Under the pieces are notes generated by a model. It saw only the letters and a list, made by a program, of their open reading frames with translations. It was not told the origin of the DNA and searched no databases. From NCBI GenBank assembly GCA_963796275.1, contig CAWCKY010000006.1, positions 2,496,001-2,560,000 on the forward strand: DNA of 64,000 bases, written 5' to 3'. Below, piece after piece: positions 11,022 to 33,862 of this stretch (its first letter is position 1; the number at the start of each line of letters is the position of its first letter). The DNA comes from an uncultured Acidobacteriota bacterium. Lineage in GTDB: Bacteria; Acidobacteriota; Blastocatellia; RBC074. A program made the translations under genes and the position numbers.

Positions 11022-11039
11022 GGTAAGACAACAATTCAA

Positions 11040-11152: not shown

Positions 11153-11154
11153 GC

Positions 11155-14100: not shown

Positions 14101-14739
14101 GGCAGGTCTTCGATCAGACCATCCAGACCGGACCGGTCGGCAACTTTCCCGTCGCCGACAGTTTCAACCGCGCGCTCGAACGCGACGTCTCGACCGGGGA
14201 CATCCCGAACGTCTTCGTCACCAGCTTCACCTATGAACTGCCGATGGGTAAGGGGCGCGGGTTCAATCTCTCCGGCATTGCCGACAAACTATTCGGCGGA
14301 TGGAATATCAACGGCATGGTTTGGTTGCAGTCGGGGTTGCCGTTCCCGGTCACGCAGATCACGAACTTCAACGCCTTCGCGGGATTCGGCACGCAGCGGC
14401 CGAATATTCTCCGCGATCCGACTCTGGCCGCCGACGAGCGGACGACCGATCGCTGGTTCGACACGTCGGCCTTTGCGGTCGCTCCGCAATTTACGATCGG
14501 GAACTCTTCGCGCAACCCGGTGCGTGGCCCTGGCTACACGCACGGCGGATATCGCGTTTATCAAGCGTACGTATTTCGGTGAGGACATAAACTTCGAATT
14601 CCGCACGGAGATATTCAACCTGACGAACACGCCGCCGCTCGCCAACCCGAACGGCGTGGTTGGCAATGCGGCGTTCGGCACGATCACATCGGCGGGAGAT
14701 CCGCGCGTGATCCAGTTCGGACTGAAGCTGAATTTCTGA
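11155..14739 (+). pseudogene. Oar-like TonB-dependent receptor, split by three +1 frameshifts (~13411, ~13883, ~14538)
   Basis: ORFs 11110, 13388, 13650 and 14233 join into one receptor: carboxypeptidase-regulatory N-domain, DLPLNGRNF, EFLRNEALNARN, NFGPRLGIAY, FNLTNTP, C-terminal PRVIQFGLKLNF; may be sequencing errors. Confidence 0.88.
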
Positions 14740-14802: not shown

Positions 14803-15306
14803 ATGATAATCCGCGGAATCCTTTGCTCCCTGATCATAACGTTTTACGCCACAGTTCCTGCCCCGGCGCAGACCGGTGAAACGAAGAAAAGCCTGCGGAT
14901 TAGCGGGGAAGTGGAGCGTCCGCTCACTCTCAAAGCCGAGGACCTGGCCAAATTGCCGCGCCGCAGCGTCAGGGCAAAAGACCACAGCGGAAAGGATTCG
15001 GAGTTCGAGGGCTCGCCGCTGGTCGCGGTCTTAACGCTTGCCGGCGTGAAATTCGGCGAAGATCTGCGCGGCAAGAATCTCGAGCTCTACCTCGTGGTCG
15101 AGGCGGCTGACGGTTATCGGGCGGTCTTCGCGCTGCCGGAACTTGATCCAGCCTATACAGACAAGGTCATCCTGCTGGCGGATAAACGCGACGGCAAGGC
15201 GATGGACGCCAGGGAAGGCCCGCTGAGGATCGTCGTGCCCGACGAGAAACGTCAAGCGCGCTGGGTTCGTCAGGTGACTGGGCTTGTCGTCAAACGCGCG
15301 CAATAA
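14803..15306 (+). CDS. Exported molybdopterin-binding-domain (Oxidored_molyb-like) protein
   Basis: Signal peptide; LRISGEVERPLTL..DLAKLP, VEAADGYRAVFALPELDP, EGPLRIVVPDEKRQARWVRQV. Confidence 0.85.
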   Translation: MIIRGILCSLIITFYATVPAPAQTGETKKSLRISGEVERPLTLKAEDLAKLPRRSVRAKDHSGKDSEFEGSPLVAVLTLAGVKFGEDLRGKNLELYLVVEAADGYRAVFALPELDPAYTDKVILLADKRDGKAMDAREGPLRIVVPDEKRQARWVRQVTGLVVKRAQ

Positions 15307-15545: not shown

Positions 15546-15702
15546 CTGAACGCCGTGGAGCCGCTATTTAAAAAATGAAGACCTCTATCCTGTAGTTTCG
15601 CTTTTACCGCTATTCCATATCCGCGCCTGCATGTCATGGACGACTTCTTCAAATTTCCGATAGGGGTTTTCCCGACAGTGCCAGATGTGCATAATGGCGC
15701 GA

Positions 15703-17844
15703 ATGTCTATATATCTTAAACACCTTCTCGGAATCATAATTATCGCTTCAATCGCCGGAGCGACCATTCAACCGGTCGCGCTGGCGCAGACGACAGAACC
15801 GAAAGCCCCGATTCGCTTGGAACCGATAACCGTCCACGTTTACAAAGATCCGGACGACGTGCAGCGGCTCCCGGTCAGCGTCACCGGTGTTTCGGAATCC
15901 GTGCTGCGAGGGGCCGGCGTCCTCAGGGTCAGCGACGCTGGAATTCTGGCGCCGAATACTTTTTTCTCGGAGTTCACGGCGCGCAAGCTCAGTAATGCGC
16001 GCTTTCGCGGGATCGGTTCGAGCCCGTCGAATCCCGGCATCACGACCTACATCGACGGTGTACCGCAACTCAATACAAATTCTTCAAGCATCGAGTTACT
16101 GGACATCGAGCAGATAGAATTCGTCCGCGGACCTCAGAGCGCGCTGTTCGGACGCAATACCCTTGGTGGACTCGTCAATATCACGACTCAACGGCCTGAA
16201 ATGAAGGGATGGACGGGCGGTCTCACAGTCCCGCTAGCCAATTACTCGGAATGGGATGCGAGAGCGAACATTTCAGGGCCGATCAGCGAGAAAGCCGGCG
16301 TCCGCGTGACGGTCGGGCGTGGGACGCGCGATGGTTACACGATCAACGATGTCACGGGAAACGATCTGGACTATCGAAGGACGTCCTATGGCAAGGCTCA
16401 ATTGTGGTGGGCGCCAACCAGCAGGTGGGAAGCGCGTTTGATTGTCACCGGCGAGCGGGATCAGGACGGCGATTATGCGCTCAACGACCTGGCGGCACTG
16501 CGCCAGAATCCGTTTCGTTCGTCGCGGGACTTCGAGGGAATAGTGGAGCGGGATGTTCTGGCATCGACCGTTCAGGTCCGTCGGGAAGGGAGCCGTTTTG
16601 CATTCAGCACCACCGCCGGCCTGGTGAACTGGAAGACGCGGGACGTCACCGACCTGGACTACACTGCGCGCCCATTGATCACGCGGGACAATAAAGAAAA
16701 GGATGTACAGTTCACCCAGGAAGTGCGGCTCGCATCGGCTGCCGGCGCCCCCGTCAGATTGGGGGACCGCGTGAGGTTGCGATGGCAGACCGGAGCGTTC
16801 TTCTTCTCGCAGAACTACGATCAGGACGCGATCAATAACTTCTCGCCTTTCCTCCTTTCCCCCCAGGTGGGATTTCCGGTGGCACAGCATTCTCCTCGGT
16901 CGGCGCTGAACGACACGGGCGCTGGCGTGTACGGGCAGATGACGGCGACCTTCAGCGAGAGCTTCGACCTGACGTTCGGCGCCCGCGTCGATCACGAAAA
17001 CAAGCGAGCGGACCTGCGCACGTTTTTCGATCCTGCAATCAGTCCCGAAAACAGAGTAATAGCGAAGAAAGGCTTCTCCAATGTGTCCCCACAGTTGGCG
17101 GCATCGTACCGGTTTGCGGGAAGTCGCATGGTCTATGCGTCGGTCGGCCGCGGATACAAGGCCGGGGGCTTCAATCCTGCATCGCCGGCAGGCAGCGAGG
17201 CCTATGGAGAAGAAGGAGCGTGGCACGTCGAGAGCGGCGTCAAGACACTGCTGGCCGGCGGCAAGTTGTCCGCCAACGCTGCGCTGTTCTACATCGACTG
17301 GAGCGGCTTGCAACTGAATGTGCCGAATCCGGCCGTGCCGGCGCAGTTCTTTATCAGGAACATCGGGCGCGCCACTAGCAAGGGATTCGAAGCCGAGCTC
17401 AACGCGCGGCCTCACGCCAATTTGGATCTTTTCGCCACTTTCGGATTGACGAATGCGCGGTTCGCGGATGCTACGTCTTCTGGAGGAGTCGACGTATCCG
17501 GTAACAAACTGCCCAGCGCGCCGGATCACACCTTCACCGTTGGGGCGCAGGTTACGAAGGACCTCAAAAGCAGCTTCGCACTCTACGGCCGCGGCGAGGT
17601 ATGGTTCAACGGCGGGTTCGAATACAATGACGCCAACACGCAAAGGCAGGAGGCGTATTCACTCGCGAATATCCGAGCCGGATTGCGCGGGCGATATATG
17701 TTTGTGGAAGCATGGATCAAGAACGCGTACGACACTCGGTATATTCCGATCGCTTTCGCCTACGGCAGCTTTGCGCCTTCTGGCTTCGTGGGTGAAATGG
17801 GAGCGCCGCGCCGTATTGGAATCACGATGGGCTTGACGTTTTAA
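15703..17844 (+). CDS. Classical TonB-dependent receptor (plug + barrel)
   Basis: LEPITV TonB box, RFRGIGS, YIDGVP, IEQIEFVRGPQSALFGRNTLGG, GYKAGGFN, terminal F; ORF open from 15685, ATG 15703 lies 7 nt after CATAAT. Confidence 0.92.
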   Translation: MSIYLKHLLGIIIIASIAGATIQPVALAQTTEPKAPIRLEPITVHVYKDPDDVQRLPVSVTGVSESVLRGAGVLRVSDAGILAPNTFFSEFTARKLSNARFRGIGSSPSNPGITTYIDGVPQLNTNSSSIELLDIEQIEFVRGPQSALFGRNTLGGLVNITTQRPEMKGWTGGLTVPLANYSEWDARANISGPISEKAGVRVTVGRGTRDGYTINDVTGNDLDYRRTSYGKAQLWWAPTSRWEARLIVTGERDQDGDYALNDLAALRQNPFRSSRDFEGIVERDVLASTVQVRREGSRFAFSTTAGLVNWKTRDVTDLDYTARPLITRDNKEKDVQFTQEVRLASAAGAPVRLGDRVRLRWQTGAFFFSQNYDQDAINNFSPFLLSPQVGFPVAQHSPRSALNDTGAGVYGQMTATFSESFDLTFGARVDHENKRADLRTFFDPAISPENRVIAKKGFSNVSPQLAASYRFAGSRMVYASVGRGYKAGGFNPASPAGSEAYGEEGAWHVESGVKTLLAGGKLSANAALFYIDWSGLQLNVPNPAVPAQFFIRNIGRATSKGFEAELNARPHANLDLFATFGLTNARFADATSSGGVDVSGNKLPSAPDHTFTVGAQVTKDLKSSFALYGRGEVWFNGGFEYNDANTQRQEAYSLANIRAGLRGRYMFVEAWIKNAYDTRYIPIAFAYGSFAPSGFVGEMGAPRRIGITMGLTF

Positions 17845-17898
17845 ATGTTGGGCACCGGTCGCTTCGCGGCGGGAACCTTGATGATTGGAGAGAGACCT

Positions 17899-18684
17899 AT
17901 GAGTCCAGCGATCACGGCGAGACAACTGGATGCCCGGGCGGTTCTGCAATATAAGGAAGACGGATTCCTTATCGTTCGCGGCGTCTTCTCGGCCGATGAA
18001 ATCTCCGCGCTCGACGGAGAGGCGGAGCGCCTTTACCACCGCAGCGACCTCATCGATACCGATAACATCCGCTGCCGCTGGCAAAATCACTTTCAGACGG
18101 GGGAATGCCGCTTCGATTGCTTCGATCCTGTCATCGATCTCAGCTCCGCTTACGAACGCGTTGCGCGCAGCCAGCATCTGCTCGATCTCGTAGGACAGCT
18201 CTACGGAGAGCGTGCGTGTCTCTTCAAGGATAAGCTGATCTTCAAGCCTCCCGGCGCAGAAGGTTACCACCTTCATCAGGATTACATCTCGTGGGATTCC
18301 TTTCCCACCAGCTTTCTCACCGCAGTCGTCGCTATCGATGCCTGCGATCGGGAGAATGGAGCGACCGAGGTCTTTCGCGGCTATCATCTCCGCGGATACA
18401 TGTCGCCCAAGGACGGAATGTATCACCAACTGCCGGACGAATCCGTGGACACATCGGCGGGGGTCGTTTTGACTTTATCTCCCGGCGATGTCGCCATCTT
18501 CAGTGGATATACGCCGCACCGTTCATCTCCCAATCGTTCCGGCCGCAGCCGGCGCCTGCTCTACCTGAGCTACAACGCATTCAGTGATGGCGGCGAACAG
18601 CGTGACCGTCATTACGCCGAGTTTGCGGATTGGCTGAAGGACCGATATGCCGAATACGGCAAGACGATGACGTACTTCCGATAG
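17899..18684 (+). CDS. PhyH-family Fe(II)/2-oxoglutarate dioxygenase
   Basis: YKEDGFLIVRGVFS, FKDKLIFKPPG, HQD...H(TPHRSSPNRS..SR) facial triad, ENGATEV; GGAG RBS upstream. Confidence 0.92.
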   Translation: MSPAITARQLDARAVLQYKEDGFLIVRGVFSADEISALDGEAERLYHRSDLIDTDNIRCRWQNHFQTGECRFDCFDPVIDLSSAYERVARSQHLLDLVGQLYGERACLFKDKLIFKPPGAEGYHLHQDYISWDSFPTSFLTAVVAIDACDRENGATEVFRGYHLRGYMSPKDGMYHQLPDESVDTSAGVVLTLSPGDVAIFSGYTPHRSSPNRSGRSRRLLYLSYNAFSDGGEQRDRHYAEFADWLKDRYAEYGKTMTYFR

Positions 18685-18688
18685 TTCT

Positions 18689-19921
18689 ATGAGCTTGATC
18701 AACTCTTGTATAAACGTCCTGATCGCCGCGTTAATTATGGTTGCAACGCTGCCCGGCAGGACACAGGGTTTGGGACTGATTACCGAGCCGCTGCTGCGCG
18801 ATCTGAATGTGGACCGTGTCACGTATGCCCACATTAACCTATGGGCGACACTTCTCGGGGCGATTGTTTGCCTGCCCGCCGGAAGGATCTTCGATCGATT
18901 GGGCCTGCGAATCGCGACCACATTGATCACGGCGCTGCTAAGCTTCGTTGTATGGCAAATGAGCGGCCTCGCGGGCGGAATCGCGGCTCTCTTCGTCCTG
19001 GTCTTTGCGACCCGCGCGCTCGGGCAGAGCGCACTTTCAGTTGCGAGCATCACGCTCGTGGGGAAAGCGTTCGATCGCCGCGTCGGTTTCGCCATGGGCG
19101 TCTATTCCGTGCTCTTGAGCATGTTTTTTGCAGGCGCATTCATCATTGTCGGCAGCGTCGTGCGCAATACCGGCTGGCGCGAAGCCTGGTCAGGAATCGC
19201 ATTGGTGTTGGTCTTGTTTATCGCGCCCGCTGTGCTGGTGTTTATTCGTGAGCCCGGCAGAGCCTCGCCCGCGCAAGAGGAGAAAGGCGCCGCCGGAGGC
19301 GAAGATCTCTCGTTGCGAGATGCCCTGGGGACATCCGCCTTCTGGGTATTCGCAGGCGCAACCTCTCTCTATGGCCTGGTGGCTTCGGGGCTGGGGTTGT
19401 TTAACGAAGCTCTGCTGGCCGAACGCGGCTTCAGCCAGGAGACTTATCATAAGTTTCTGGCGGGAACGGCAATCATTGCGCTGTTCGGGCAGCTCGGCTG
19501 CGGTCTGATGACGTTGCGGTGGTCGATGCAGCGGCTTGCCGCCTACGCTTTGTTCGCGTACGCGGTGGCATTGGTCGCGTTTCCTTTTTTGACGACGCTG
19601 CCCCAGCTCTGGGGGTTTGCGGCACTGATGGGTTTCTCCGGCGGAATGATCACCGTGATCTTCTTTGCCATCTGGCGCCGCGCCTATGGGATGACGCACC
19701 TGGGCCGGATTCAGGGGGCCGCCCAGATGCTGACCGTCCTGGCTTCAGCCATCGGGCCGTTGCTGTTCGCGAAAAGCGTAGAGCTGACGGGTTCTTATAT
19801 GCCGGTTCTGCGATTGCTCGCGCCCGCAGTCGCTTTGTTGGGCATTGCTGCATTGCGCGTGCGCTTGCCTTTGACACCGGCGCCCGTCGAAGCTGCGCCG
19901 GATCACGTAGCCGTAAGATGA
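18689..19921 (+). CDS. MFS transporter
   Basis: About 12 hydrophobic segments; GRIFDRLGLR motif A; YGMTHLGRIQG. Confidence 0.9.
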   Translation: MSLINSCINVLIAALIMVATLPGRTQGLGLITEPLLRDLNVDRVTYAHINLWATLLGAIVCLPAGRIFDRLGLRIATTLITALLSFVVWQMSGLAGGIAALFVLVFATRALGQSALSVASITLVGKAFDRRVGFAMGVYSVLLSMFFAGAFIIVGSVVRNTGWREAWSGIALVLVLFIAPAVLVFIREPGRASPAQEEKGAAGGEDLSLRDALGTSAFWVFAGATSLYGLVASGLGLFNEALLAERGFSQETYHKFLAGTAIIALFGQLGCGLMTLRWSMQRLAAYALFAYAVALVAFPFLTTLPQLWGFAALMGFSGGMITVIFFAIWRRAYGMTHLGRIQGAAQMLTVLASAIGPLLFAKSVELTGSYMPVLRLLAPAVALLGIAALRVRLPLTPAPVEAAPDHVAVR

Positions 19922-19938
19922 AGGTATAGGGAGGTCGT

Positions 19939-21003
19939 ATGACAGCTATTGATGCTTCGCTTATCAAATTTCACATTTCGCTCACTGCCAGCAACCTTGA
20001 CCGTTCTATCGCATTCTACCGCGCTCTTCTCGGTACGGAACCGGCAAAGGTCCGTGATGATTACGCCAAGTTCGAGCTTGCCGAACCGCCGCTCGTTCTA
20101 TCGTTAATCCCCGGTGGTGTCGGCGGAAACGTCAACCATGCGGGATTGCGCGTACGAACCGCCGATGAACTGGTAGACATTCAGCGGCGGCTCGAGATTG
20201 CAGGCATCGTGACCCAGCGCGAGGAGGGAGTTGAGTGCTGCTATGCCCTGCAGACCAAGTTTTGGGTCGCCGATCCGGATCGGATGCTGTGGGAGGTTTA
20301 TCTTTTCCATGAAGATATCGACGAACGTGGAGACGCCACCGTTCCGGTCGCAGCGCTCAACGCTCCAGTTTCTCTATCGTCAAAGCCGCTCTCGAACTGG
20401 ACGCACCGTCTGGGCAGCGCTTTCCCCGACCGAATTCCTCATGACGACAACTCGCTGAATGAAGTGTTGCTTGAAGGAAGCTTCAACGCGGAGCGTGACA
20501 ATGTAAACCGCGACAAGCTGATGGCCGAAGCGCTGCGGGTGCTGCGGCCCGGCGGTGAAATACGATTGCACATGCTGACAGGCGACTCTTCCGGAAATTA
20601 CGGAAAGCTTTCTCTACCGGGTCCGGCATCGGCTGTAGGGTACGCGCCGATGCCATCAGAGCTGACGGCCGCTCTGACTCGATCGGGGTTCCGCGACGTT
20701 CACATCGTCCTGCTATCGCAAAAGCCGTGTTTCGTGGCTGAAGGAGTGGCGATGCGCGAGTGCCGCATCCAGGCGAGGAAACCCGGCCACCGGACGCAGC
20801 AGAAACAGCATCACGCGGTCTATCGCGGGCCTCTAGCCGAAGTAACGGACGACTACGGCAACGTGTTTCGGCGGGGAGAACTCACGCCGTTGAATGTGCA
20901 CGACTGGCAGATGCTATCGAAGGGAGACGCGGCTGCATCATTCGTGTTCATGACGCCGGGTGAGAGGAGCGAGGCTGCTTGCTCTTCAGTCGTTGACCTA
21001 TGA
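19939..21003 (+). CDS. ArsI/CadI-family VOC metalloenzyme fused to a truncated methyltransferase-like domain
   Basis: FHISL...DDYAKF...NHAGLRV...ECCYALQTKFWVADPD...WEVY (ArsI signature); then IPHDDNSL.EV...AEALRVLRPGG and AVYRGPLAEVTDDYGNVFRRGE; GGGAGG RBS. Confidence 0.85.
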   Translation: MTAIDASLIKFHISLTASNLDRSIAFYRALLGTEPAKVRDDYAKFELAEPPLVLSLIPGGVGGNVNHAGLRVRTADELVDIQRRLEIAGIVTQREEGVECCYALQTKFWVADPDRMLWEVYLFHEDIDERGDATVPVAALNAPVSLSSKPLSNWTHRLGSAFPDRIPHDDNSLNEVLLEGSFNAERDNVNRDKLMAEALRVLRPGGEIRLHMLTGDSSGNYGKLSLPGPASAVGYAPMPSELTAALTRSGFRDVHIVLLSQKPCFVAEGVAMRECRIQARKPGHRTQQKQHHAVYRGPLAEVTDDYGNVFRRGELTPLNVHDWQMLSKGDAAASFVFMTPGERSEAACSSVVDL

Positions 21004-21354
21004 TGTTCGTTGATCGAACTGGAAGCTGCAACAGCCAAGATCCAGCACGCGCGCGTGTGCACGGCTGCGCCTGATTCTTTCCGGTACGACGTACAGGTGC
21101 TCCCGCCCATGTTTTTCGAGGTCGAGCAGTCCTGCTTCCCGAAGGATCCTGAGGTGTCTCGAAACGTTGTAGTACTCCAAGCCCAACCGGCGCGCAATTT
21201 CGCAGACGCCGAGAGGAGCGTCCATTAACAGACCGATGATGCGAACGCGATTGTCCTCGCCGAGCGCCTTGAGCGCATTCACGCAGTCGCCCCCGTCATA
21301 AAGCGGCAAATCGGGCTGCTTCTTCGCGATTCTTTGAGTGATAGATTTGCCCAT
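20998..21354 (-). CDS. ArsR/SmtB family transcriptional regulator
   Basis: DCVNALKALGEDNRVRII..L...LGVCEIA...NVSRHLRILREAGL..EKHGR; C-terminal LDLGCC. Confidence 0.9.
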   Translation of the reverse strand: MGKSITQRIAKKQPDLPLYDGGDCVNALKALGEDNRVRIIGLLMDAPLGVCEIARRLGLEYYNVSRHLRILREAGLLDLEKHGREHLYVVPERIRRSRAHARVLDLGCCSFQFDQRTS

Positions 21355-21874
21355 CGAAACGGATTATAGCATGAAGGGAATTTTGGATTGAGGGCCATAC
21401 AGGCAGGCGAGTTACCCTTCTTGTGCATGCGGGCGCGGCAGACTGTCGCAGTAGTTCTTTCGCAATTATCCACGAGCAGAAAATTAAGAGATAACAGGAC
21501 AAACGGAAACTACTTCAGGCTGGAGCTGTTGACATGGATGTTTATAGTCCCGCCTGACACAAGTCGTAAGTGAATTGCTTAAGAAGCGCTCCATGGTTTC
21601 GTTCAGATTAGGAATTTCGTCTTTGCCTGCACCCGCAATGAACAGAAGTATCCTATGGTAGATCGCTGACCGATCTCCCCGTGCACGGATATGCAAATCG
21701 CATTGCCTGGCCGAATCTTACGGTTGATCGGATTGTTGGGCCGGTGTCGCTTTAATTGCGAGCTATACTCCAGCGCGGCGCGCAACTAAGGTTTATCGAT
21801 ACAGGCGCCAGTTAGGCATCTAGTCTATGAGCGTCGTCGCTGATCTAGCACCAGGTGAAACTTCAGCCAGTCAG

Positions 21875-22609
21875 TCACTGGTTCCTCCATCCAGGCTCGT
21901 CTCGATCGAGGATCCGCTTCAAAGCCTCAAAATGAAGCAGGTATTGCTTCTCTTCGGCGATCTGCCGGCCGGTCAGCGCTGCGATCGAATCGTCAACGAG
22001 CTTCAGCGGTTTGCCAGTACTTTGAGCCAGGACTTGCACCATGCAAGTACGTTCGAGGTAATAGAGATCATTGAATGCTCTGGCCACTGAATCGCCGCAT
22101 ACGATCACACCGTGATTGGAGAGAAATAGGACATCCGCATTTTGCGTCTGCGCCGTGATACGGTCGCCTTCTTCCGGATCGAGCACCAGACCGTTGTAGC
22201 ATTCGTCGTAAGCCACGCGGCCATAAAACCGCAGCGCATTCTGATTCGCCCATTCCAGCCTGCCACCGTCAATGATAGTAAGCGCTGTCGTATAAGGCAT
22301 ATGCGTGTGCAGCACGCAAGCAGCGTTCGGTTTCCCCAGATGAAGCCGCCCGTGAATAAAAAACGCTGTCGCTTCGACCTCATGCCTGCCTTCGATGATA
22401 TTTCCATCGGAGTCGGTCATGACCAGATCAGCAGGTGTAATCTCAGACCAGTGCAATCCTTGCGGATTTATCAGAAAGCGATCGGCGGTGCCCGGAACTG
22501 CAAGACTGAAATGATTGCAGATACCTTCATTAAACCCTAATCGCTCTGCCCATCGAAGAGCTGCCGTGAGGTCGATTCGCGCTTGAACTATTCTATCGTC
22601 ATAGTGCAT
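21875..22609 (-). CDS. Class II aldolase/adducin family protein
   Basis: EGICNHFS, FLINPQGLHWSEI, EATAFFIH, CVLHTHMPY, LSNHGV; GGAGG RBS before ATG 22609. Confidence 0.9.
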   Translation of the reverse strand: MHYDDRIVQARIDLTAALRWAERLGFNEGICNHFSLAVPGTADRFLINPQGLHWSEITPADLVMTDSDGNIIEGRHEVEATAFFIHGRLHLGKPNAACVLHTHMPYTTALTIIDGGRLEWANQNALRFYGRVAYDECYNGLVLDPEEGDRITAQTQNADVLFLSNHGVIVCGDSVARAFNDLYYLERTCMVQVLAQSTGKPLKLVDDSIAALTGRQIAEEKQYLLHFEALKRILDRDEPGWRNQ

Positions 22610-22631
22610 AGAGATTGCCTCCAAATGGTAA

Positions 22632-22928
22632 TGGTATCGTCGAGAGCAGCCGTATGATCCCACCGTGGACGATCTGAAGGCGCCGGTCGGTACGAGAGTC
22701 CCGAGATCGGGACGGTCTTCCAGATCGAGTCCAAGTGAGACGGCATGCAAGTGCACCTCGAACACGCCGTCCAGAAGCCTGGAACTCAAGCCGGTCGACC
22801 GAGACATCGTCCAAAAATTCAGGATGACGGTGCGCTTCCCACGCGACAAGTACGGAAAAGTCGTGTCTCTCGGCTACCGCAGCTCGCTGGTACGCAACGT
22901 CAAATTCTCGAGGCTGATCTACCGCTAA
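22632..22928 (+). pseudogene. Degraded C-terminal fragment of a serine-hydrolase/beta-lactamase-like protein
   Basis: Across two frameshifts and a stop it reads YRREQPYDPTVDDLKA../YESPEIGTVFQIESK*DG../LELKPVDRD..TVRFPRDKYGKVVSLGY..LVRNVKFSRL; family call is by recollection only. Confidence 0.45.
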
Positions 22929-22974
22929 TGATGCGTACAATTATAAATTAGCCAGAGGCGTACCTCGTTTACGC

Positions 22975-24690
22975 TCATAGTGTGGCTTTGTCCCGTTTTA
23001 GCGACTCGTCGCGACGCGCTTTGAACTCCGTGCCCGGTTTCCACTCCGGCCAATTTTCTCCCTGCGCCACCTGGTACCCGACCTGGAAGAGCAGCCGTAA
23101 ATCATCAATGGCGCCAGACATATCCCAATCCGGTTTCACATCGTCAGAAACCTTGTGATAGTCGCGATCGGTGTACTCCTTGCGCTTCTGCAGGCCGTAC
23201 CCTTCAGGCTTGCCGATGAATTCAGTCCCTTCGTCGGTATAGAGCGCAGGCACACCCTGCTTGGCGAATTCAAAATGATCGGAGCGATAGAAGAATCCCT
23301 TCTCCGGCTCGGCGTCGGGTTTGACCACACGCCCTTGGGCAGACGCCGCCTCGACAAGCGTATCGTCGAGCGTCGAATTGCCGTAACCGACAATCACCAC
23401 GTCTCTGGTGCGCCCCCATAGGTTGAGTCCGTCCATATTGATGTTGGCCAGTGTGCGTTCGCGTGGGTAAAGCGGATTCTCGGCATAGTACTTCGCGCCC
23501 AGCAGTCCCTTCTCCTCCGCGGTCACTGCCAGGAACAGGAGCGAACGTTTGGGCGCGGGATTCAAGGTCGCGAACGCTTCGGCGAGTTCAAGCAGGCCGG
23601 CCGTGCCTGACGCGTTGTCGTGCGCGCCGTTGAAAATCTGATCGCCCTGCAATTTCGAGTCGCGACCCATATGGTCCCAGTGCGCGGTGTAAATCACGTA
23701 CTCATCTTTGAGCTTCTCATTCGAGCCTTCCAGTTTGGCGATCACGTTGGTCGAAGCCACTTCGCGCAGCGCGGTCTTGATCGTAAAGTTGGCTTTGGCG
23801 TTTAGGGGCATGGGCTTGAAATCTTTGCTGAGCGCGGCTTTCTTCAAACCGTCGAAATCCTGCCCGGCGGTGGTGAAGAGCTGTTTGGCCTTGTCAACAG
23901 TGATCCACGATTCAACTGCGACCTTACTCATATTTCTATCGGGTGTCTGAATACCGAAGTTCTCTTGCCGCCAACTGGCCAAAGCCGCGAATGGATAGCC
24001 TGCGGGACCGGTTTCGTGAACGATGATCGCAGCCGCCGCTCCTTTCTCCGAAGCGATCTCGTATTTGTACGTCCAGCGGCCGTAATAGGTCATCGCTCTG
24101 CCCTTGAACATCTTCTCGTCGAGCTTGTTCGCATCTACGGGATCGGGGATCGCCGGGTCGTTGATGAGCATGACGATCGTCTTGCCTTTGACGTCCACGC
24201 CTTTAAAATCGTCCCAGCCGTATTCGGGAGCTACGACTCCGTAACCAACGAAGATCACGTCCGAATTCTCGACTTTGGTCTCCGGCGTGAACCGGGGCGA
24301 GCGCGCCAGATAATCCTCACTGGCGAGAGGCATCTGCTTGCCGCCGATGGTGAATGACGCCGATGGCTGGGGGGTATAACCAACGAGCGGAACTTTCTGC
24401 GTATAACTGCCATCGGGATTCCCGGGCTTGAGGCCCAGACGTTTGAATTGTTCGGTCAGATAGTTAACAGTCAATTCCTCACCTTTGGTGCCCGGCGCGC
24501 GCCCTTCGAACTCATCCGAAGCGAGCGTTTTGATGTGCCCAAGCAGCTTGTCACTATTGACGCGGTCGAGCGCGGGCTTGATGTCGGCGGACGCCTCAGG
24601 CGCGACGTTGTTTTTTGTTTCGGGAGCGCAGGCCAATGCGAATGATACGAAGGCGAAAAATACGCCCCGGAAAAAAATGTGCTTTTTCAT
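22975..24690 (-). CDS. M28 family metallopeptidase with PA domain, probable lipoprotein
   Basis: [58 protein letters not shown]; FALAC lipobox. Confidence 0.93.
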
Positions 24691-25324
24691 TTTCGGTCCC
24701 TTCGGTTCTTTGTCTCAAGTTTGTGGTCGAACATTGCGTAATAGAAAATCCGCCTGAAATAGAGAGGCGGAAGTATGGTGCATTATTGATGATTTGTAGC
24801 GTCCGGCGCCAGACTTTTCAGCCGACGAAAATATTTCTAATTGCTTTGGTAACAAGGAAGCGGCCGCGTTGATCAACTGCAGCTACGCCACGTTCCGGCG
24901 GGCGGCGGTCAATGGAAAACTCAAAGCGGATTCTGTCGGTAATCGACAGCAAAATACTTGGATCAAAAATATTGCGTGGATTGAAACTGGATCAGGTGAA
25001 CTCACATTGATGAGTATATTTTTCAGCTGCTCAGAGCAGTCATTGGATCGACTTTCGTTGCCCGGCGTGCGGGCAGATAACAAGCAAGTAATGCAATGAA
25101 AAGCAGGAAGAGCGCCGTTCCCGCAAAGGTTACCGGATCGGTTGCGCTCACGCTGTAAAGCCAACCGGCGAGCATCCACGTCAGAGCGACCGTCAGTCCC
25201 AGACCAATGAAGATTCCAACCAGGTCACTCCCACTTGGTGCGCCCAGGGGCGAATTGGCTGAGACATCTTCAGGGTCCGGACAAAGTCGCCGCGTTGAGC
25301 GTCACCACACGCGATCAGTCACTT

Positions 25325-25981
25325 TCAGGTCGCGCCGAGCTTACTTGGGGTTGTCGCCTTAACTGCCCGATACTTCTTTACGTCAGCACCCGGTTCCGAG
25401 AATTTCAAGTCAAGGCCGCCGTCTTTGCGCTGCTCGATTTCAAGCACTGCGGCCTTGACTCCATCAAAGTAGTGAAGCAGGAAGGTCAATCCGTCAAAGC
25501 GCCCAGCTATCGGTCCCAACTCGCCGCTCGGGCGCGAAACGGTGGCAAAGGTGTCGTCGCCTTTCCGTCGGATTGTCAGGCGCCAGGCGGTGTCCGGCAC
25601 TTCCCAGGTTCCCGAGATATCCGGTCCTGCCTCGCCTACGAAGCCGCAAGTACAGAACTTTGACGCGGTGAACGGATGCATGTCCTGTCCACTCCCAATA
25701 GTGCCCTTAAGTTGCCCATCCGCCAGTGTAGCCTCAAGCCGTGTGCCGGATCCGAAAGTGAGGCGCACTGACCCAGCCTCAAAACTACCCTCCTTGGAAG
25801 CTACGCGGGAGTCGCCATTCACGAAAGAGCCCTTGAGCGTTTTGCCGTTGGGCTCGAAATGGATAATGAATGGAACATTCAGAGTGCCGAAGGTGATCGT
25901 TCCGTCCCATCGGTCGTCCGGTGCTTGCGCCCATCCGCAAGCCACGGCCAGAGTAACCATCGTGAATATTTTCAGGATCAT
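25325..25981 (-). CDS. Secreted two-domain beta-rich protein with central CTC motif
   Basis: Signal peptide MILKIFTMVTLAVACGWAQ; two related repeats (RWDGTI.../ISGTWEV...) linked by KFCTCGF; GGAG RBS; the TTG start at 26020 falls inside the repeat element. Confidence 0.75.
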   Translation of the reverse strand: MILKIFTMVTLAVACGWAQAPDDRWDGTITFGTLNVPFIIHFEPNGKTLKGSFVNGDSRVASKEGSFEAGSVRLTFGSGTRLEATLADGQLKGTIGSGQDMHPFTASKFCTCGFVGEAGPDISGTWEVPDTAWRLTIRRKGDDTFATVSRPSGELGPIAGRFDGLTFLLHYFDGVKAAVLEIEQRKDGGLDLKFSEPGADVKKYRAVKATTPSKLGAT

Positions 25982-26003
25982 TTGTTTATCTCCAGAGTTG
26001 AAA

Positions 26004-26524
26004 TATTGAGCTTCAGGCAATCAGTTTTACAAACATTGCCTGCTTCGTTTCCGCCGCGTCTCGACGCTATGGATGGAGCCCGGCGTTTCAAGGCCTTGTT
26101 ATGCCCAAACTTTCGCACGAAATGTACACCTTCTTCGTCGCGCCGCGACGGCGTGAATGTAGCCGTGCGTTTTAACGGAAAGCCAGTAAAAGGCTCCGCG
26201 TCGCGTCAGCGACGGTTGAGTCAAGCGTCGCTGACGCGACGCCGGGACAATCTCACGTGTCTACCGTGGGTTGAAACCCGATTGAAACCCACGGCTACAA
26301 TCAGCCGCCGCTAACGCGGCGAGGAAATGTGGCTTCCGTGAAAAGATATGGGTAACGACAGGTAATAACTCACGGAAAGACAGCCATTGGTTGAAACCCA
26401 CAGCTTACATTCACGCCGTCGCTACGCGACGATGGATGCCGGTGCCGGCGTTGAAACGCCGGATTAGACTTATCCCTGCAGCTACGGCAATTCGGCATCG
26501 GCATTAGACGACCAAACTTAATGT
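26004..26524 (-). repeat. ~520-bp REP-rich repeat element, copy 2 (inverted relative to 6896..7433)
   Basis: Direct alignment with copy 1, with small indels. Confidence 0.9.
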
Positions 26525-26566
26525 AAATAGATGAACCGACCAGCCTTATCGGCCGCGTCAAATTTG

Positions 26567-27746
26567 CTAATCATTGATTTGAAGCTCTTTCAGAGCACTT
26601 CGAGGTTTAAGCAGATGCTGAACCTCGAGCATAGTCTTGTGCACGTACGCGTCTTCCGCTGCTCTCCTGGATAGGGCGGTAGAAAATTTTAGAGCGTTGG
26701 CCAGGTCCTCAGGACGGTCGCCCATGGCTCGGGGGTCGGCATAGTCCTGCACGTGAGTAGTGAGCCAGGGCCCTTCTATTACAGCTTGTGCACGCAATCA
26801 ACACAAATTCGCGTCCCGGATGGTCTGCGGCCCCCATTAGGGCCGTCTCAGCTAGCACGCCTTGCAGTATGGTTGCCTGTTGAGCAGCCACGCTCATCCC
26901 TTGACCGTATACCGGATTGAACCGGCACATGGTATCAGCGAACGGGATAACATTACCCGGCAGAGCATAATTCCTGCCAAATCTCCTCCAGCGGCTCGCC
27001 TTGAATATGTATAACGCTGTATCACCGCGGAGCCTGGCTGCTCTTACGGCGTTGTACATGTCCGGTACGGGCAAATTCCGTAGATGTTCAACGAACTCCG
27101 AGGCCTTATTAGATGGCTTCTCATCGTAACGGCCGGTCAAAACCACCATCCAATTATTCCCCTCGATAGGAAACAGAAACGCAGCTCGGCGGTTCTCTTC
27201 AGGATGCGACAGAATAACGAGTGCCTTCCAGTCCTCTGGGGCGCTTTCCGGCATCTCGAAGATCGTTGTGGCATAGCACGCGCCATCAGGGGCTTGACAC
27301 CTGATGCTGCTGATGGTTTCGATGCTCGGGTCAAGCACGAACTCCAGTGCCTTCCAGCCCTGCAAAAAACGTATGTTTGGATATTGCTCAGTTCGTTTTC
27401 TGATAAGCAATTCAATCAGGGGGCGAGACATGCTGTAAATAGTCAAACCGAGATCACGGCGCGGAAAAGGATGATATCCGGGCCGGTACATCAAATACTC
27501 CTGAGTCAATCCAATCGGCACAGCACCGGCGGTAATCAGATCCTGATCGAATCCAGGAAATAAGGAGTTCAATGCGTTCATGCCGCCGGCCAACAACGCC
27601 TGAAGGTGCCTTGATTGCGGAGTACCCGGTCGTGGAACCGCGTTCTGCGGTAACGTATCGTTTTCAATTACTTCCACTTGATCGAAGTGATCGCTCAACG
27701 CTCGTGCCGCTGTCAGACCGCCCACACCCGCTCCGATGACGACAGC
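26567..27746 (-). pseudogene. FAD-dependent oxidoreductase/monooxygenase pseudogene
   Basis: AVVIGAGVGGL Rossmann motif, RPGTPQSRH, FNPVYGQGMSVAA; own start missing, apparent internal deletion (APDGA|CYATTIF, no ADLVVDASG segment), frameshift near 26800. Confidence 0.8.
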
Positions 27747-27840
27747 GAACCCTGTGCAGATGCGAGGCAATAGAACGAGAGCAAGCAGGCGATGAGGATA
27801 AAGCCGCGCCGTAAATTAGTCATGATAATTCTCCTATACA
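27713..27840 (-). pseudogene. RBS and signal peptide of a TBDR paralog, fused out of frame to the FAD gene
   Basis: AGGAG RBS then ATG 27823: MTNLRRGFILIACLLSFYCLASAQGS vs MNNLRRGSILIACLLSLTRLASAQGS of the 46109 TBDR (21/26 identical). Confidence 0.8.
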
Positions 27841-28179
27841 ATCAATGGGAATGACGAAAAGCGGCACCAGGTCGTCCTTAGACCGCAAATTTCAACTTCG
27901 AGAGAACTCGGACACCCCACCGCGCGGTCAAGGCCATTGTGAGGCAGCGTGTTGACGCACTCCGCAGGCACAATTGGACACACTACAACCATCACGAATC
28001 GTTTTTTCATGGATTTCCTTCTCGATTATTTGTTTTTCAAGTTCTGATTTTTGGGCTTCGTTTCTTTAACCCCGTACGCCTCCCACGGTTGCCGGCTCGC
28101 TACATTTCTTGTGTCGCGTCACGGCTTGGCGATGCTTATATCTGATCACTATCGGCCAGGTTGTGGCCGATCTATCGAA

Positions 28180-29274
28180 TCAGTCTCCCGCCCCCGCGCC
28201 AAGACTGGCGCCGTTCTCGTGACGCGCTTCGAGCTGGTCGAGCTTGTTCATCATCTGCACGCTGTGAACCAGCGCGATTCCGGCCGCCATCGCGCTGGCG
28301 ACGTGGACTGCTTCGCTCATCTGCGCTTCGCTCACGTGCATCTTGTGCAGTGTCGCGGTGTAGGAGTCTATGCAATAGGGGCATTTCAGCGCGTGCGACA
28401 CCGCCAGCGCAATCAGAGCTTTCTCGCGCCTGGTCAGCTCGCCGTCCGCCATGACCTGCCCGTAATAGGCGAAGAAGCCTTCCGCCATTTTCGGATTGGC
28501 GCGGCTGATTTCGCTGAAGCGGCCCAGGTCTTGCCGTTGATAATAGTTGCCGTAGCTGCCGCTCGCCGCATGGCCGTTGGCGCTGGCTGTCGCGGTCTCT
28601 GATGAGGTTTCGGCCCCGCAGCAGGAGATCGAGGCGGGATCGATCTTTTCGGGATTGGCCGGGCGCAGATCGCACCCCATCTTGTCGGGATTGACCTTCA
28701 GTGCGCCGTAAGCGAACTCAAGCGGAATGCCCGTATTTTCGCCTTCATCCGGGGGGTACAGCCAATGCTTCTCAGCCACCTCTACGTGGCAGCAGTAAAC
28801 GGGACGATCCGGGCCGCCCTGAGAGGCGTGCGCCCAATTGAGCGTCTGTGCCGCGGCTGGCAATGCGTCGAAGGTTTGGCGGACTGCCGCGGTTTCATCG
28901 CGCAGGTCGATTCCGATGTGATCCAGGAAAGGGCGCGGGCGGCGATTGGCTTCGGTCTCCAACAGTTCGTCCTGCGAGACTTTGATGTGGGAGAAGATGG
29001 CGTTGATGGCTCCGGGAAAACGATATTTGACGAAACCGTCTTTTTGATGATCGAGCCGCGCCCCCAAGTCGAAGAACTGATTGATCGGCAGCATGTGCGT
29101 ATCATCTACCTTGATGTGAAGATGCAAAGTCTCAGCCAACTCGACCGCGCCGTCGAGCGGCGAGTCAGGCGCGCCCAGACGGTTGACGACTTCAATTTCT
29201 CGGTTGTTGAGCAGGCCGCATTCTTGTAAGGCTTTGAGACTGGCGATCGCTTCGTCGTTGTTTCGAAATTTCAT
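28180..29274 (-). CDS. Fusion of a divergent VOC-like domain (CC motif) and an arsenosugar-biosynthesis-associated AhpD/CMD peroxidase-like domain
   Basis: N part LHLHIKVDD..LDHIGIDL..YCCHVEVAEKHWLYPP..LEFAYG; C part YYQRQDLGRF..FFAYYGQVMADGELTRREKALIALAVSHALKCPYCIDSYT..EAVHVA..LVHSVQMMNK (TIGR04169-like). Confidence 0.85.
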   Translation of the reverse strand: MKFRNNDEAIASLKALQECGLLNNREIEVVNRLGAPDSPLDGAVELAETLHLHIKVDDTHMLPINQFFDLGARLDHQKDGFVKYRFPGAINAIFSHIKVSQDELLETEANRRPRPFLDHIGIDLRDETAAVRQTFDALPAAAQTLNWAHASQGGPDRPVYCCHVEVAEKHWLYPPDEGENTGIPLEFAYGALKVNPDKMGCDLRPANPEKIDPASISCCGAETSSETATASANGHAASGSYGNYYQRQDLGRFSEISRANPKMAEGFFAYYGQVMADGELTRREKALIALAVSHALKCPYCIDSYTATLHKMHVSEAQMSEAVHVASAMAAGIALVHSVQMMNKLDQLEARHENGASLGAGAGD

Positions 29275-29389
29275 TTCAATCCTCTCCTTTCAATTGGGGC
29301 TTCATATCAATATCAGAGGTTCGTCACAGTTACCTGTCGCTGCGAATTACAGTCAATTGGATATATTTCACTGTAAATCGTCAGGAATT

Positions 29390-29403
29390 TTTGAATATTC
29401 AAA
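29390..29403. promoter_or_regulatory. Perfect 14-bp palindrome, candidate ArsR-type operator
   Basis: TTTGAATATTCAAA about 115 bp upstream of the 29274 start. Confidence 0.4.
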
Positions 29404-29715
29404 CGATAATAAAGAGGACCAAAACGAGTCGGGGTGATGTTCGGCCCTGTGAGATAATATCTTCGGCGCTCTTTGATGGTTATTGGATTGCTGCGCGGTG
29501 CATCGTAATTCTGGGGCACGTCAAAAGCGCATATTGTCTCTCGCGTATACGCCTCTCACTCGAACGCGGTTTCGCAAGAAACAACTAACATCTCAATTAC
29601 TATACAGATCGTATTTCGATATGTGGATTCTTACTGACATTCCAATCGAGCCACACATTGCAGCATCCGATCGGCTTGTATTTCCGCGTGTCTGTGGTAC
29701 TGCGAGGAACTCTTT

Positions 29716-30035
29716 TCTGTAGTTTTTGCGTTGACCTGTCCGGCTCGCGTCCGCGCATAATGCTTTGTTTTTCGATAAGGGTTTTCTCTACGAGATCACA
29801 TGTGCATAATAGCGCAATTGTCTAAACCCGTAAACATTTGCGGAATCATTGTAGTCGCTTCAATCGTCTGCCTGATCGTTCGATGAGTTCGCAGCGGGCG
29901 CGGATGCAGACAAACAGAACCGATCCGCCTGGAACCGATTACCATCCACGTGTACAAAAATGCGGCTGCCAATTAGAGTTCATCGAGGTTTCGGAATCCG
30001 TGCTTCGCGGGGCTGGCGTAACTACGCCGGAATCA
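29716..30035 (+). pseudogene. Degraded duplicate of the promoter and 5' end of the 15703 TBDR
   Basis: cgataagggttttc..atgtgcataat, ccgatccgcctggaaccgattaccatccacgtgtacaaa and gtttcggaatccgtgcttcgcggggctggcgt align with about 15590-15945. Confidence 0.8.
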
Positions 30036-30074
30036 TTGTGTTGAAGGTTGAATAAACTAAAAGGAGAATAGAGC

Positions 30075-30566
30075 ATGACGAAAAGACGTTTGGTAGTTTT
30101 ATTCAGTTTTTTGTTAATCATCGGCCTTGGCGTGGCCTCGGCTCAAAACGCTCAGACTGCTCAAAACCCGGCCTCACAAGCGAAGGATGCGGCCCCAGAC
30201 GTAACCGGAGAATGGACAGGCGTTTGGTTCGCCTACAATCCGTCGCAGCCCGTGAGTTCGCCGAAGGAATTGTGTAAGGCACTCTCAGCAAAGGTCTCGT
30301 CGAAGGAAGGCGTCTGGGAAGCGACGTTCGAAGGCGAATGCGGCAGGCCCTACAAGTACACGATCAAGATGGAAGGCCGTCAGGTAGGCAAGGCCGTGTT
30401 GTTCAAGGGAACGACCGACCTCGGCCCCAAGGACGGAGGAGTCTACGATTGGATCGGGCGGGCCAATGAGAAGGAGTTCGTCGGGTTCTATACGAGCGGC
30501 TACTACACCGGATCATTCGCTCTCAAACGGGCGATTAAGAAAGAGAATTCCGCCATTTCCCAATAA
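30075..30566 (+). CDS. Secreted hypothetical beta-barrel-like protein
   Basis: AAGGAG RBS, signal peptide, DVTGEWTGVW, two Cys, DLGPKDGGVYDWIG. Confidence 0.75.
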   Translation: MTKRRLVVLFSFLLIIGLGVASAQNAQTAQNPASQAKDAAPDVTGEWTGVWFAYNPSQPVSSPKELCKALSAKVSSKEGVWEATFEGECGRPYKYTIKMEGRQVGKAVLFKGTTDLGPKDGGVYDWIGRANEKEFVGFYTSGYYTGSFALKRAIKKENSAISQ

Positions 30567-30655
30567 CCGGTAATGCCCGATTGACTATCACTGCGGGTGT
30601 AGCCTCGCTACAGGCCGCGCCACGTATTATCCCCGGCGACAGAAAGGCTCGATAG

Positions 30656-33600: not shown

Positions 33601-33862
33601 GTTCTCCGCGCCGTTCACCTTCGGTAACGCCGGTCGCAACGTACTGGATGGGCCGGGCTATCAGAACGTTAACTTCTCGCTGGTCAAAAACACGGCATTG
33701 CGAGAGTCGTTGAATCTGCAAATTCGCACGGAGTTCTTCAATTTTTTCAATCACCCGAATTTCGATCTGCCTGATAATTTCCTGGGCTCGCCTTCGTTTG
33801 GGAGCATCCGTTCGGCACAGAGTCCGCGCCGCGTGCAGTTCGGCATGAAATTGTTGTTTTGA
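30656..33862 (+). CDS. Oar-like TonB-dependent receptor, 1068 aa
   Basis: Carboxypeptidase-regulatory domain, [48 protein letters not shown]. Confidence 0.95.

Follow-up and report, generated by a model that had tools for sequence, protein, structure and literature searches.

We describe an operon in a 64,000-nucleotide (nt) stretch of DNA from an uncultured Acidobacteriota bacterium (contig CAWCKY010000006.1, positions 2,496,001 to 2,560,000; hereafter the window), which encodes a fusion of an ArsI-type C-As lyase domain to a truncated ArsM-like domain. The core of the cluster consists of a PhyH-family oxygenase, a major facilitator superfamily (MFS) permease and the fusion protein, usually together with an ArsR repressor, and a lineage-specific envelope component occupies the first position; in the window this is a TonB-dependent receptor (TBDR). 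We propose, with a probability of roughly 0.45, that this ArsR-controlled operon acquires and oxidatively dealkylates an organoarsenical. The assembly that contains the window (9.46 Mb, 7 contigs, 94.7% complete) has metagenome-assembled genomes of Blastocatellia (Acidobacteriota) as its nearest relatives in a scan for relatives of the fusion. The operon and its control region are laid out as follows, in window coordinates.

15683-15706, plus strand: candidate ArsR operator and promoter core, an inverted repeat with a -10-like box in its spacer.
15685 (or 15703, the likely true start)-17844, plus strand: TBDR, 719 aa, Plug and TonB_dep_Rec_b-barrel domains.
17845-18684, plus strand: PhyH oxygenase, 279 aa, PF05721 at 102 bits (cut-off 22).
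18689-19921, plus strand: MFS permease, 410 aa, MFS_1.
19939-21003, plus strand: ArsI fusion, 354 aa, NF041414 (ArsI/CadI) at 130.1 bits against a cut-off of 116.
20998-21354, minus strand: ArsR/SmtB repressor, 118 aa, NF033788 at 66.6 bits against a cut-off of 55, winged-helix HTH_5 at 47.8 bits.

The gaps between the four plus-strand genes are 0, 4 and 17 nt in the list of open reading frames (ORFs), with the TBDR stop codon abutting the PhyH start, and the fusion gene and arsR converge with a 6 nt overlap. The ORF list and family scans bear out every gene and family of the tight, co-oriented operon put forward in the original prediction, and also the convergent ArsR with its C-terminal Cys pair, which lies in an LGCC motif. 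Rfam gave no match within 15590-29403, and a generic promoter and terminator scan returned counts equal to the shuffled expectation.

Relatives of the cluster were sought in one genome per species, where 279 pattern matches yielded 244 relatives, and the best 80 loci were kept (L-numbers below denote related loci found by the fusion or distal-protein scans). About 60 of the 80 loci belong to Planctomycetota, 11 to Acidobacteriota and 7 to Verrucomicrobiota; one is a short contig labelled Alcaligenaceae and one is unclassified. By tblastn, both halves of the fusion are present in all of these best 80 of 244 loci, PhyH in 66, MFS in 56, ArsR in 34 and TBDR in 10. At the 58 loci with at least 3 kb of upstream sequence, the same method placed PhyH within 6 kb in 52 cases (51 co-oriented), MFS in 46 (all co-oriented), PhyH and MFS together in 43, and TBDR in 9. 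Clustering of neighbouring ORFs found a TBDR in 11/80 loci and a DUF1559 protein, which has a prepilin-type N-terminus, in 27, each directly upstream and co-oriented, so that an envelope gene of one kind or the other stands first in 38/80 loci across phyla. The order TBDR > PhyH > MFS > fusion, with ArsR on either side, is seen in Acidobacteriota, Verrucomicrobiota and a few Pirellulales, and DUF1559 > PhyH > MFS > fusion or DUF1559 > MFS > PhyH > fusion in the 27 planctomycete loci. Of the synteny anticipated between TBDR, PhyH, MFS and ArsR, the part that stands is the association of PhyH and MFS with the fusion, and often ArsR, across three phyla; TBDR is accessory by either count.

Some loci depart from this plan. 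Several planctomycetes, including the cultured Limnoglobus roseus PX52, carry two tandem fusion paralogues; Gemmata sp. IIL30 likewise has two fusion paralogues, and MFS is present in both of these strains. A splitting or swapping of the fusion domains in some planctomycetes was considered and ruled out, as L055 has two tandem full-length paralogues (NF041414 scores of 125.1 and 116.5 bits). In L093, a metagenome contig, PhyH is followed directly by the fusion (2-1346) and the equivalent of window 18699-19916, the MFS gene, is cleanly absent; in L001, an ORF of 231 aa is inserted between MFS and fusion. Annotation of the recurrent neighbour families, which covered the largest clusters from the 80 loci, turned up no gene for a PhnZ-type HD-domain protein or a C-P lyase. 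Genes for CobW/COG0523-type GTPases lie near the cluster in 7 loci and genes for the lipoyl carrier GcvH in 5, often divergent from TBDR; acidobacterial L003, L004, L008, L010 and L058 have such neighbours. The presence of a dithiol lipoyl protein beside arsenical enzymes is suggestive.

The fusion protein consists of an ArsI-type C-As lyase domain (residues ~10-128), a disordered linker (~129-152) and a truncated ArsM-like domain (~153-340). Its N-terminal domain aligns with Thermomonospora curvata ArsI (5c4p) at E 7.2e-24, with the CC pair, His and Glu in register, and Foldseek matched the first domain of an AlphaFold2 (AF2) model (mean pLDDT 75.8, linker disordered at 127-150) to ArsI 5cb9. 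C100, C101, H12, H67 and E119 are invariant in 16/16 family members (59-90% identity), and in this alignment C100 and C101 are the sole invariant Cys of the whole protein. The marks of ArsI, namely an NF041414 score above cut-off, a vicinal Cys pair and an Fe(II) triad (Gln/His-His-Glu), are all present, as is the vicinal oxygen chelate (VOC) fold of the T. curvata structures (5c4p, 5cb9, 5v0f). By sequence the fusion belongs to the ArsI C-As lyase family and would be expected to cleave C-As bonds. It differs from ArsI in having His12 as the first metal ligand in place of Gln8 of the T. curvata enzyme; in a score lower than those of the stand-alone ArsI genes of the same genome (130 vs 158-162 bits); in the fused ArsM-like domain of ~200 aa; and in being encoded alongside an oxygenase and transporters, not in a resistance operon.

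The C-terminal domain resembles ArsM in fold and weakly in sequence. It matches NF040538 (ArsM) over model positions 169-320 only, at 39 bits, and Foldseek aligned it with ArsM (4fr0, 6cx6, 5eg5) and AS3MT (8xt7) at E 2.8e-10 to 1.1e-8 over 186-194 columns; across the ArsM/AS3MT matches as a whole the alignments span ~186-207 columns with 14-21% identity. The complete Rossmann S-adenosylmethionine (SAM)-binding domain, which makes up the N-terminal half of these enzymes, is missing, and residues 150-354 contain no invariant or near-invariant Cys in the 16-sequence alignment. The protein thus combines ArsI with the rear portion of an ArsM-like fold from which the SAM-binding part and the arsenic-binding Cys have been lost, and because both are absent this domain is not a methyltransferase. 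Searched alone, the C-terminal domain matched 395 representative clusters (E <= 0.001); in the majority of full-length matches it occupies residues ~150-350 of proteins of 340-385 aa, the same architecture. This domain family is small and mostly confined to the fusion. The whole-protein family is large (2078 matches among 8000 scored candidates). Among the 120 matches listed, 116 cover at least 94% of the fusion at no less than 57% identity, and the source names are generic, none naming arsenic. In a phylogenetic profile of 201 Acidobacteriota genomes, 24 match at E <= 1e-30; the whole fusion is matched in the window genome only, and the other 23, including G024, match in the ArsI part. Since the two halves resemble ArsI and ArsM in sequence and fold, the arsenic link claimed for this protein is strengthened.

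PhyH orthologues across phyla are 50-90% identical to the window protein, above the conservation of the fusion. The nearest characterised relative is the methylphosphonate hydroxylase PhnY* (NF052437, 91.2 bits against a cut-off of 500), ahead of ectoine hydroxylase at 33 bits, which supports the phosphonate-hydroxylase analogy drawn earlier; the L023 orthologue scores 71.3 bits against the same family. Among solved structures the window protein comes closest to ectoine hydroxylase and further PhyH enzymes (E ~1e-8), and an ESM Atlas search returned generic PhyH clusters only. The residues H144-x-D146, H225, R236/R237 and N74-x-R76-C77-R78 are invariant in 21 orthologues and at least 97% conserved in 55. 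HxD...H would provide the iron ligands and R236/R237 the Arg that binds 2-oxoglutarate (2OG), and the basic residues R76 and R78, together with the likewise invariant K128, K130, K134 and R253, would suit a small oxyanion. The oxidative PhnY*/PhnZ methylphosphonate system of Gimesia maris (Gama et al. 2019, PMC6581173) resembles the operon in combining a PhyH-type Fe/2OG hydroxylase with a second non-haem-iron enzyme that cleaves a carbon-heteroatom bond, in having small anionic substrates and in occurring in planctomycetes. The operon differs from it in pairing the hydroxylase with a VOC enzyme of the ArsI type where that system has the HD-domain PhnZ, and in its predicted control by ArsR, not phosphate starvation; its PhyH also lies well below the PhnY* cut-off.

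A complex between PhyH and the fusion is weakly supported by complex prediction, with a score of 0.57 against 0.01 for the best control, a partner pLDDT of at least 79 and runs agreeing in at least 0% of contacts. Of 80 solved complexes, 58 passed the mark set for this score, as did 2 of 110 mismatched pairs; only 7 of those solved complexes, but both of the mismatches, passed with a score of 0.60 or lower.

The best NCBIfam match of the MFS permease is the L-lactate transporter SfMCT (48.9 bits), and its planctomycete orthologue in L023 matches PgtP, a galactonate transporter and SfMCT best, with ArsK at 21 bits; no solved chain was matched at E <= 0.01. These scores point to a likeness to anion importers (lactate, phosphoglycerate and galactonate families) and not to ArsK. 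The TBDR scores 149.5 bits against the siderophore-receptor subfamily TIGR01783, under the cut-off of 223.5, and its closest solved chain is the pesticin/yersiniabactin receptor FyuA (4epa, E 6.3e-32), with FptA among the matches. FyuA/YbtX and FptA/FptX, which are TBDR plus MFS pairs for metallophore import, resemble the operon in that an outer-membrane TBDR is co-transcribed with an inner-membrane MFS importer. Unlike these pairs, the operon has a candidate ArsR-type operator and arsenic enzymes, and neither siderophore biosynthesis genes nor a Fur box was seen with it. The Fur-box search near the operon gave 0 matches at <=3 mismatches with the E. coli consensus, which may not apply to this host.

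ArsR, whose sequence ends in ...DLGCCSFQFDQRTS, has Cys24 and a C-terminal pair, Cys107-Cys108, with no further Cys downstream of it. Of 34 cluster-linked ArsRs, 33 have a vicinal CC close to the C-terminus, 32 times as GCC, and nearly all have an N-terminal Cys. The protein thus has, by sequence, the kind of cysteine cluster able to bind As(III) or methylarsenite (MAs(III)) that characterises arsenic-sensing ArsRs, and is predicted to bind such ligands. According to PMC11868830, the site of AfArsR is formed by C-terminal Cys95/96/102, SpArsR is without the third of these and is selective for methylarsenite, its sole inducer, and ArsR types respond to trivalent species only. The operon ArsR resembles these type-2 repressors in its vicinal pair near the C-terminus and SpArsR in lacking the third Cys; unlike both, its subfamily has the conserved C24, which could give a third ligand from the partner subunit, and an LGCC motif of its own.

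Alignment of the TBDR-upstream regions of the window, L002, L003, L097 and a decayed copy in the window (the relic, below) revealed an 8-N8-8 inverted repeat, ACATGTGC-ATAATGGC-GCACATGT, with the consensus ACATGTGC-N8-GCACATGT. Its spacer holds a -10-like CATAAT (15690-15695), and a -35-like TTTTCC (15667-15672) lies 17 nt upstream. The repeat occurs in the window at 15683-15706 (3 mismatches) and 29798-29821 (2 mismatches), where 0.20 matches are expected at <=3 mismatches. It is common to 7 other acidobacterial loci; L004, L010, L037 and L058 have it with the spacer CATAATGG, and in L037 it directly precedes the fusion gene, with no TBDR, PhyH or MFS upstream. The arrangement is likely to represent a -10 box embedded in an ArsR operator, and if the two hexamers are read as a promoter, ATG 15703 would lie at or next to the transcript start. 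A genome-wide search at <=2 mismatches, a list that leaves the functional operator copy (3 mismatches) outside, gave 14 matches per strand against 7 in the reversed control; besides the relic none of them has the CATAAT spacer, and a genome-wide regulon was rejected. A TGCTATAAT box lies 9 nt before the arsR ATG.

Two further features of the window belong to the history of the operon.

28180-29274, minus strand: VOC(CC)-AhpD gene (the distal gene), 364 aa, TIGR04169 at 153.6 bits against a cut-off of 120.
29705-30035, plus strand: decayed relic of the operon promoter/operator and TBDR 5' end, from repeat alignment, with its inverted repeat at 29798-29821.

Operon start and relic are joined by four collinear repeat families at offsets of 14099-14115 nt (71-85% identity), and a 440-column gapped alignment of the two has a mean column identity of 77%. 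The relic takes in ~140 nt ahead of the TBDR gene together with the gene's first ~230 nt, and its reading frame breaks off after 29 codons. The decayed copy of promoter and 5' end that had been claimed is therefore real, and lies at ~29705-30035, past position 29403, where the region first proposed ends. In L097 the order is VOC-AhpD, then TBDR-PhyH-MFS-fusion-ArsR, then a homologue of window 34712-34997, which places the intact operon exactly between the distal gene and an ABC-permease gene; in the window, the same slot is filled by the relic, a 163-aa ORF and the gene for a 1068-aa outer-membrane protein. From the L097 order and the window relic, it follows that the operon was once the divergent neighbour of the distal gene and has been displaced by 14 kb. 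The supposed historical tie of the two loci is upheld in this way, within close relatives (3/56 loci).

The VOC(CC)-AhpD gene predicted ~7 kb from the operon was found, and its product has an N-terminal VOC-fold domain (~220 aa) with YCCH and SCCG motifs and a C-terminal AhpD-like domain with CPYC. This architecture defines a conserved family (608 matches; N-domain-only versions also occur), of which a 77%-identical member from Zavarzinella formosa is named by NCBI after the AhpD-like domain. The C-terminal domain scores above the cut-off of TIGR04169 (arsenosugar biosynthesis-associated AhpD-like) and keeps its CxxC; it differs in being fused to a VOC(CC) domain and in belonging to a genome with no ArsS above cut-off. 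Invariant residues of the N-domain include H51, H53, D118, H119, C161, C162, H163, E186 and C201. The AF2 model has a pLDDT of 75.7 overall and ~90 over residues 10-190. ArsI chains were the top Foldseek matches of the N-domain (TM score 0.66-0.74, normalised to target), and VIA-align, in which they again led the VOC matches, superposed residues 47-191 of the model on ArsI 4-122 with Z 8.3-8.4 and a root-mean-square deviation of 3.0-3.1 A over 112-113 residues. Pfam Glyoxalase had no match in this domain. Homology to the ArsI domain of the fusion was rejected at a profile-profile probability of 0.8%, which leaves fold similarity alone; because of this negative comparison, and because other VOC enzymes come within 1 Z unit of ArsI in VIA-align, the data establish a VOC fold of paired beta-alpha-beta-beta-beta units and not a specific kinship to ArsI.

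The balance tilts slightly towards a distal gene that works independently of the operon, with proximity and relic alike left by no more than local rearrangement in a single lineage. None of the 80 fusion loci has the distal-gene domains within 10 kb; among 56 metagenomic loci of the distal family, only 3 close relatives (at least 86% identity) have operon genes nearby; the operon's inverted repeat was not found upstream of the distal gene; and the region is prone to rearrangement, with a wandering 231-aa ORF and small relics. A functional connection is favoured by the divergent neighbourhood with the intact operon in L097, the junction of which is kept as a relic in the window, and by the arsenic-linked relatives of both distal domains. 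The distal protein may be a second, thiol-assisted arsenical-processing enzyme outside the conserved core. A radical SAM/SPASM gene near relatives of the distal gene was tried as ArsS and rejected; it matches peptide maturases weakly. A perfect 14-nt palindrome, TTTGAATATTCAAA, lies at 29391-29404, 117 nt upstream of the VOC-AhpD start codon, and is not visible in the matching region of L097.

Other traces of rearrangement surround these loci. The relic, which retains the inverted repeat and the -10-like box, is followed within 29798-33862 by the 163-aa ORF (30075-30566, no family) and the 1068-aa OMP_b-brl_4 gene (30656-33862), and the promoter captured from it might put both under arsenic control. 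The 231-aa ORF (window 25325-26020, noted together with 26135-26432), which has no Pfam or NCBIfam match, recurs in L001 (2349-3021), in L002 (4816-5571, upstream of TBDR) and in L095 (708-1384); in the window it lies beside a pair of 27-nt inverted repeats that are 93% complementary, and its shifting position suggests a small unit that is mobile or prone to rearrangement. In L002, an 84-nt fragment (16487-16570) about 5 kb beyond arsR is 80% identical to the VOC-AhpD 5' end and is a further rearrangement relic. On the other side of the operon, a CarboxypepD_reg/OMP_b-brl_4 gene, split into ORFs 11110-13650 and 13650-14582, has a molybdenum cofactor (Moco) riboswitch before it at 11032-11162 (55.6 bits against a cut-off of 36) and a 167-aa Oxidored_molyb ORF after it at 14803-15306. 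The segment 11032-15306 may be a Moco-regulated outer-membrane uptake unit, with the split due to a frameshift or an assembly error.

Elsewhere in the genome, two stand-alone 162-aa ArsI genes (158-162 bits), each with an ArsC-domain protein and ArsN2, form near-duplicate clusters, L153 (C6:2829000-2846000) and L154 (C2:728000-745000), one of which adjoins a gene for a CrcB fluoride channel. Contig 1 carries an ArsM-like gene (223 bits, cut-off 263) beside an ArsC-like gene (C1:88552-90330). The best genome match to ArsS (TIGR04167) reaches 27.8 bits against a cut-off of 300, and no Acr3 or ArsB scored above cut-off in this 94.7%-complete assembly. Whole-genome family searches placed no match for arsB, acr3, arsC or arsS at E <= 0.001 inside the window, as originally predicted. 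With two canonical ArsI clusters and an arsM/arsC pair elsewhere, the fusion operon adds to standard arsenic detoxification and does not replace it.

In the pathway we propose, ArsR would sit on the inverted repeat over the -10 box and leave when its vicinal Cys pair binds a trivalent (organo)arsenical. The TBDR would carry the substrate over the outer membrane, a position held in planctomycetes by the pseudopilin-like DUF1559 protein, and the MFS permease, to judge from its likeness to organic-anion importers, would carry it over the inner membrane. By analogy with methylphosphonate hydroxylation, the PhnY*-like oxygenase would hydroxylate the arsenic-bound carbon, and the ArsI domain would then bind a trivalent intermediate via C100/C101 and cleave the C-As bond at an Fe(II) site formed by H12, H67 and E119. 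The ArsM-derived domain would bind substrate or act in docking, perhaps to the oxygenase. Most probably the compound acted on is a small methylated As(V) anion along the lines of methylarsonate or dimethylarsinate. A complex substrate (arsenosugar, arsenolipid or arsenobetaine-like), as first suggested, is disfavoured, since the PhnY*-like enzyme and the anion-importer-like permease fit small oxyanions better. Precedent comes from SAR11, which takes up methylarsenicals and demethylates them for energy: according to PMC6426599, these bacteria demethylate dimethylarsinate (DMA) and monomethylarsonate (MMA) and oxidise the methyl groups with enzymes not yet identified, and the same paper states that little is known of enzymes acting on dimethylarsenate or of methylarsenical uptake.

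Several observations weigh against this proposal. The TBDR is a minority feature (9/58 loci by tblastn), and the receptors closest to it, among them FyuA and CntO, are of the metallophore type. The cultured hosts L053 and L055 have MFS and two tandem fusion paralogues with no PhyH nearby, and the loss of MFS in L093 and the inserted ORF in L001 indicate that the permease is dispensable in some genomes. Transport through MFS may run outwards, and the protein could export As(III), as the cluster encodes no further efflux protein and neither Acr3 nor ArsB scores above cut-off in the genome. PhyH stands far below the PhnY* cut-off (91 vs 500) and has no PhnZ-type partner among the annotated recurrent neighbours; in known systems ArsI alone suffices for MAs(III) cleavage, so that hydroxylation is not required by precedent. 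Finally, as ArsR responds to trivalent species only, a pentavalent substrate would need prior conversion to induce the operon, and the region upstream of arsR itself lacks the inverted repeat.

Part of this evidence fits a role in detoxification only, which we regard as a serious if rather doubtful alternative. The fusion would cleave MAs(III)-type compounds that enter passively, MFS would export As(III) or an organoarsenical in the manner of ArsK or ArsP, PhyH would oxidise or otherwise modify a toxic arsenical, and TBDR or DUF1559 would be a mere neighbour. ArsI, ArsR and an MFS protein are usual parts of organoarsenical resistance operons, and the vicinal Cys pair of ArsR is of the type that senses trivalent species; the want of a separate efflux gene in the cluster and of Acr3/ArsB above cut-off in the genome, the occurrence of TBDR in only 11/80 loci and the natural MFS deletion in L093 agree with this explanation as well. 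It fits less well with a genome that already has two canonical ArsI detoxification clusters, with a TBDR that abuts PhyH without a gap behind a conserved operator, with the first-position envelope gene of 38/80 loci across phyla, or with a permease that resembles anion importers and gives ArsK at 21 bits. It also leaves the strictly conserved 2OG oxygenase unexplained, and our literature search found no report of one in arsenic detoxification. A non-arsenical substrate (a phosphonate or other small oxyanion, used in a PhnY*-like step, or a metal chelate, taken in by the FyuA-like TBDR plus MFS, with the ArsI/CadI domain and ArsR serving a different soft metal or metalloid, for instance Sb or Cd) is very improbable: the phosphonate hydroxylase as nearest PhyH family, the metallophore receptors as nearest solved TBDR relatives, the inclusion of CadI in NF041414 and the CobW-type GTPase genes of 7 loci speak for it, and are opposed by a fusion whose closest solved relative is a C-As lyase with an invariant substrate-binding CC pair and whose second domain is ArsM/AS3MT-like, by a historical neighbour with an arsenic-associated AhpD domain, by the lack of an HD-domain PhnZ or C-P lyase gene among the annotated recurrent neighbours and, weakly, by the Fur-box result.

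Organoarsenical acquisition and oxidative dealkylation, the reading we prefer, can be taken further, to a scheme that we consider unlikely as a whole: the cluster would be the missing aerobic demethylation route for methylarsonate (MAs(V)) and dimethylarsinate (DMAs(V)), from dedicated import to the final ArsI step. In this scheme a dedicated envelope receptor and an anion permease would import the compound, and the PhnY*-like oxygenase would hydroxylate an arsenic-bound methyl group. On chemical grounds, the alpha-hydroxymethyl product would collapse to formaldehyde and a trivalent arsenical, and such a collapse would bypass the never-identified methylarsenate reductase. The trivalent product would induce ArsR and would also be handed to the ArsI site, inside a complex of oxygenase and lyase held together by docking through the ArsM-derived domain, and the ArsI site would remove the last carbon.

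No paper tying ArsI to a PhyH/2OG oxygenase, a TBDR or an ArsM-derived fusion was found in a literature search that left subscription journals mostly outside its reach. A mention of PhyH in PMC12981691 was set aside, as it belongs to a vesicle proteome for which the authors infer no arsenic role. We place the cluster among the ArsR-regulated organoarsenical clusters of the ars type, to which it adds conserved components that are new; it could be a new pathway if import and hydroxylation are confirmed.

How toxic and how mobile arsenic is in soils and rice paddies depends on the demethylation of its methylated forms. To our knowledge, only the ArsI step of this process, which acts on trivalent methylarsenite, is understood. 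The cluster offers candidate genes for this gap in abundant soil phyla, Acidobacteriota, Planctomycetota and Verrucomicrobiota. Its ArsR subfamily is new and, with the candidate operator, is usable as a biosensor part, and the fusion of ArsI to an ArsM-derived domain that has lost its methyltransferase features is an unexplored protein. If the import reading is true, these bacteria would actively seek organoarsenicals, beyond mere resistance. If the aerobic route is true as well, the cluster would be the first known case in which a receptor mediates the uptake of an arsenic compound, and would form the arsenic equivalent of PhnY*/PhnZ.

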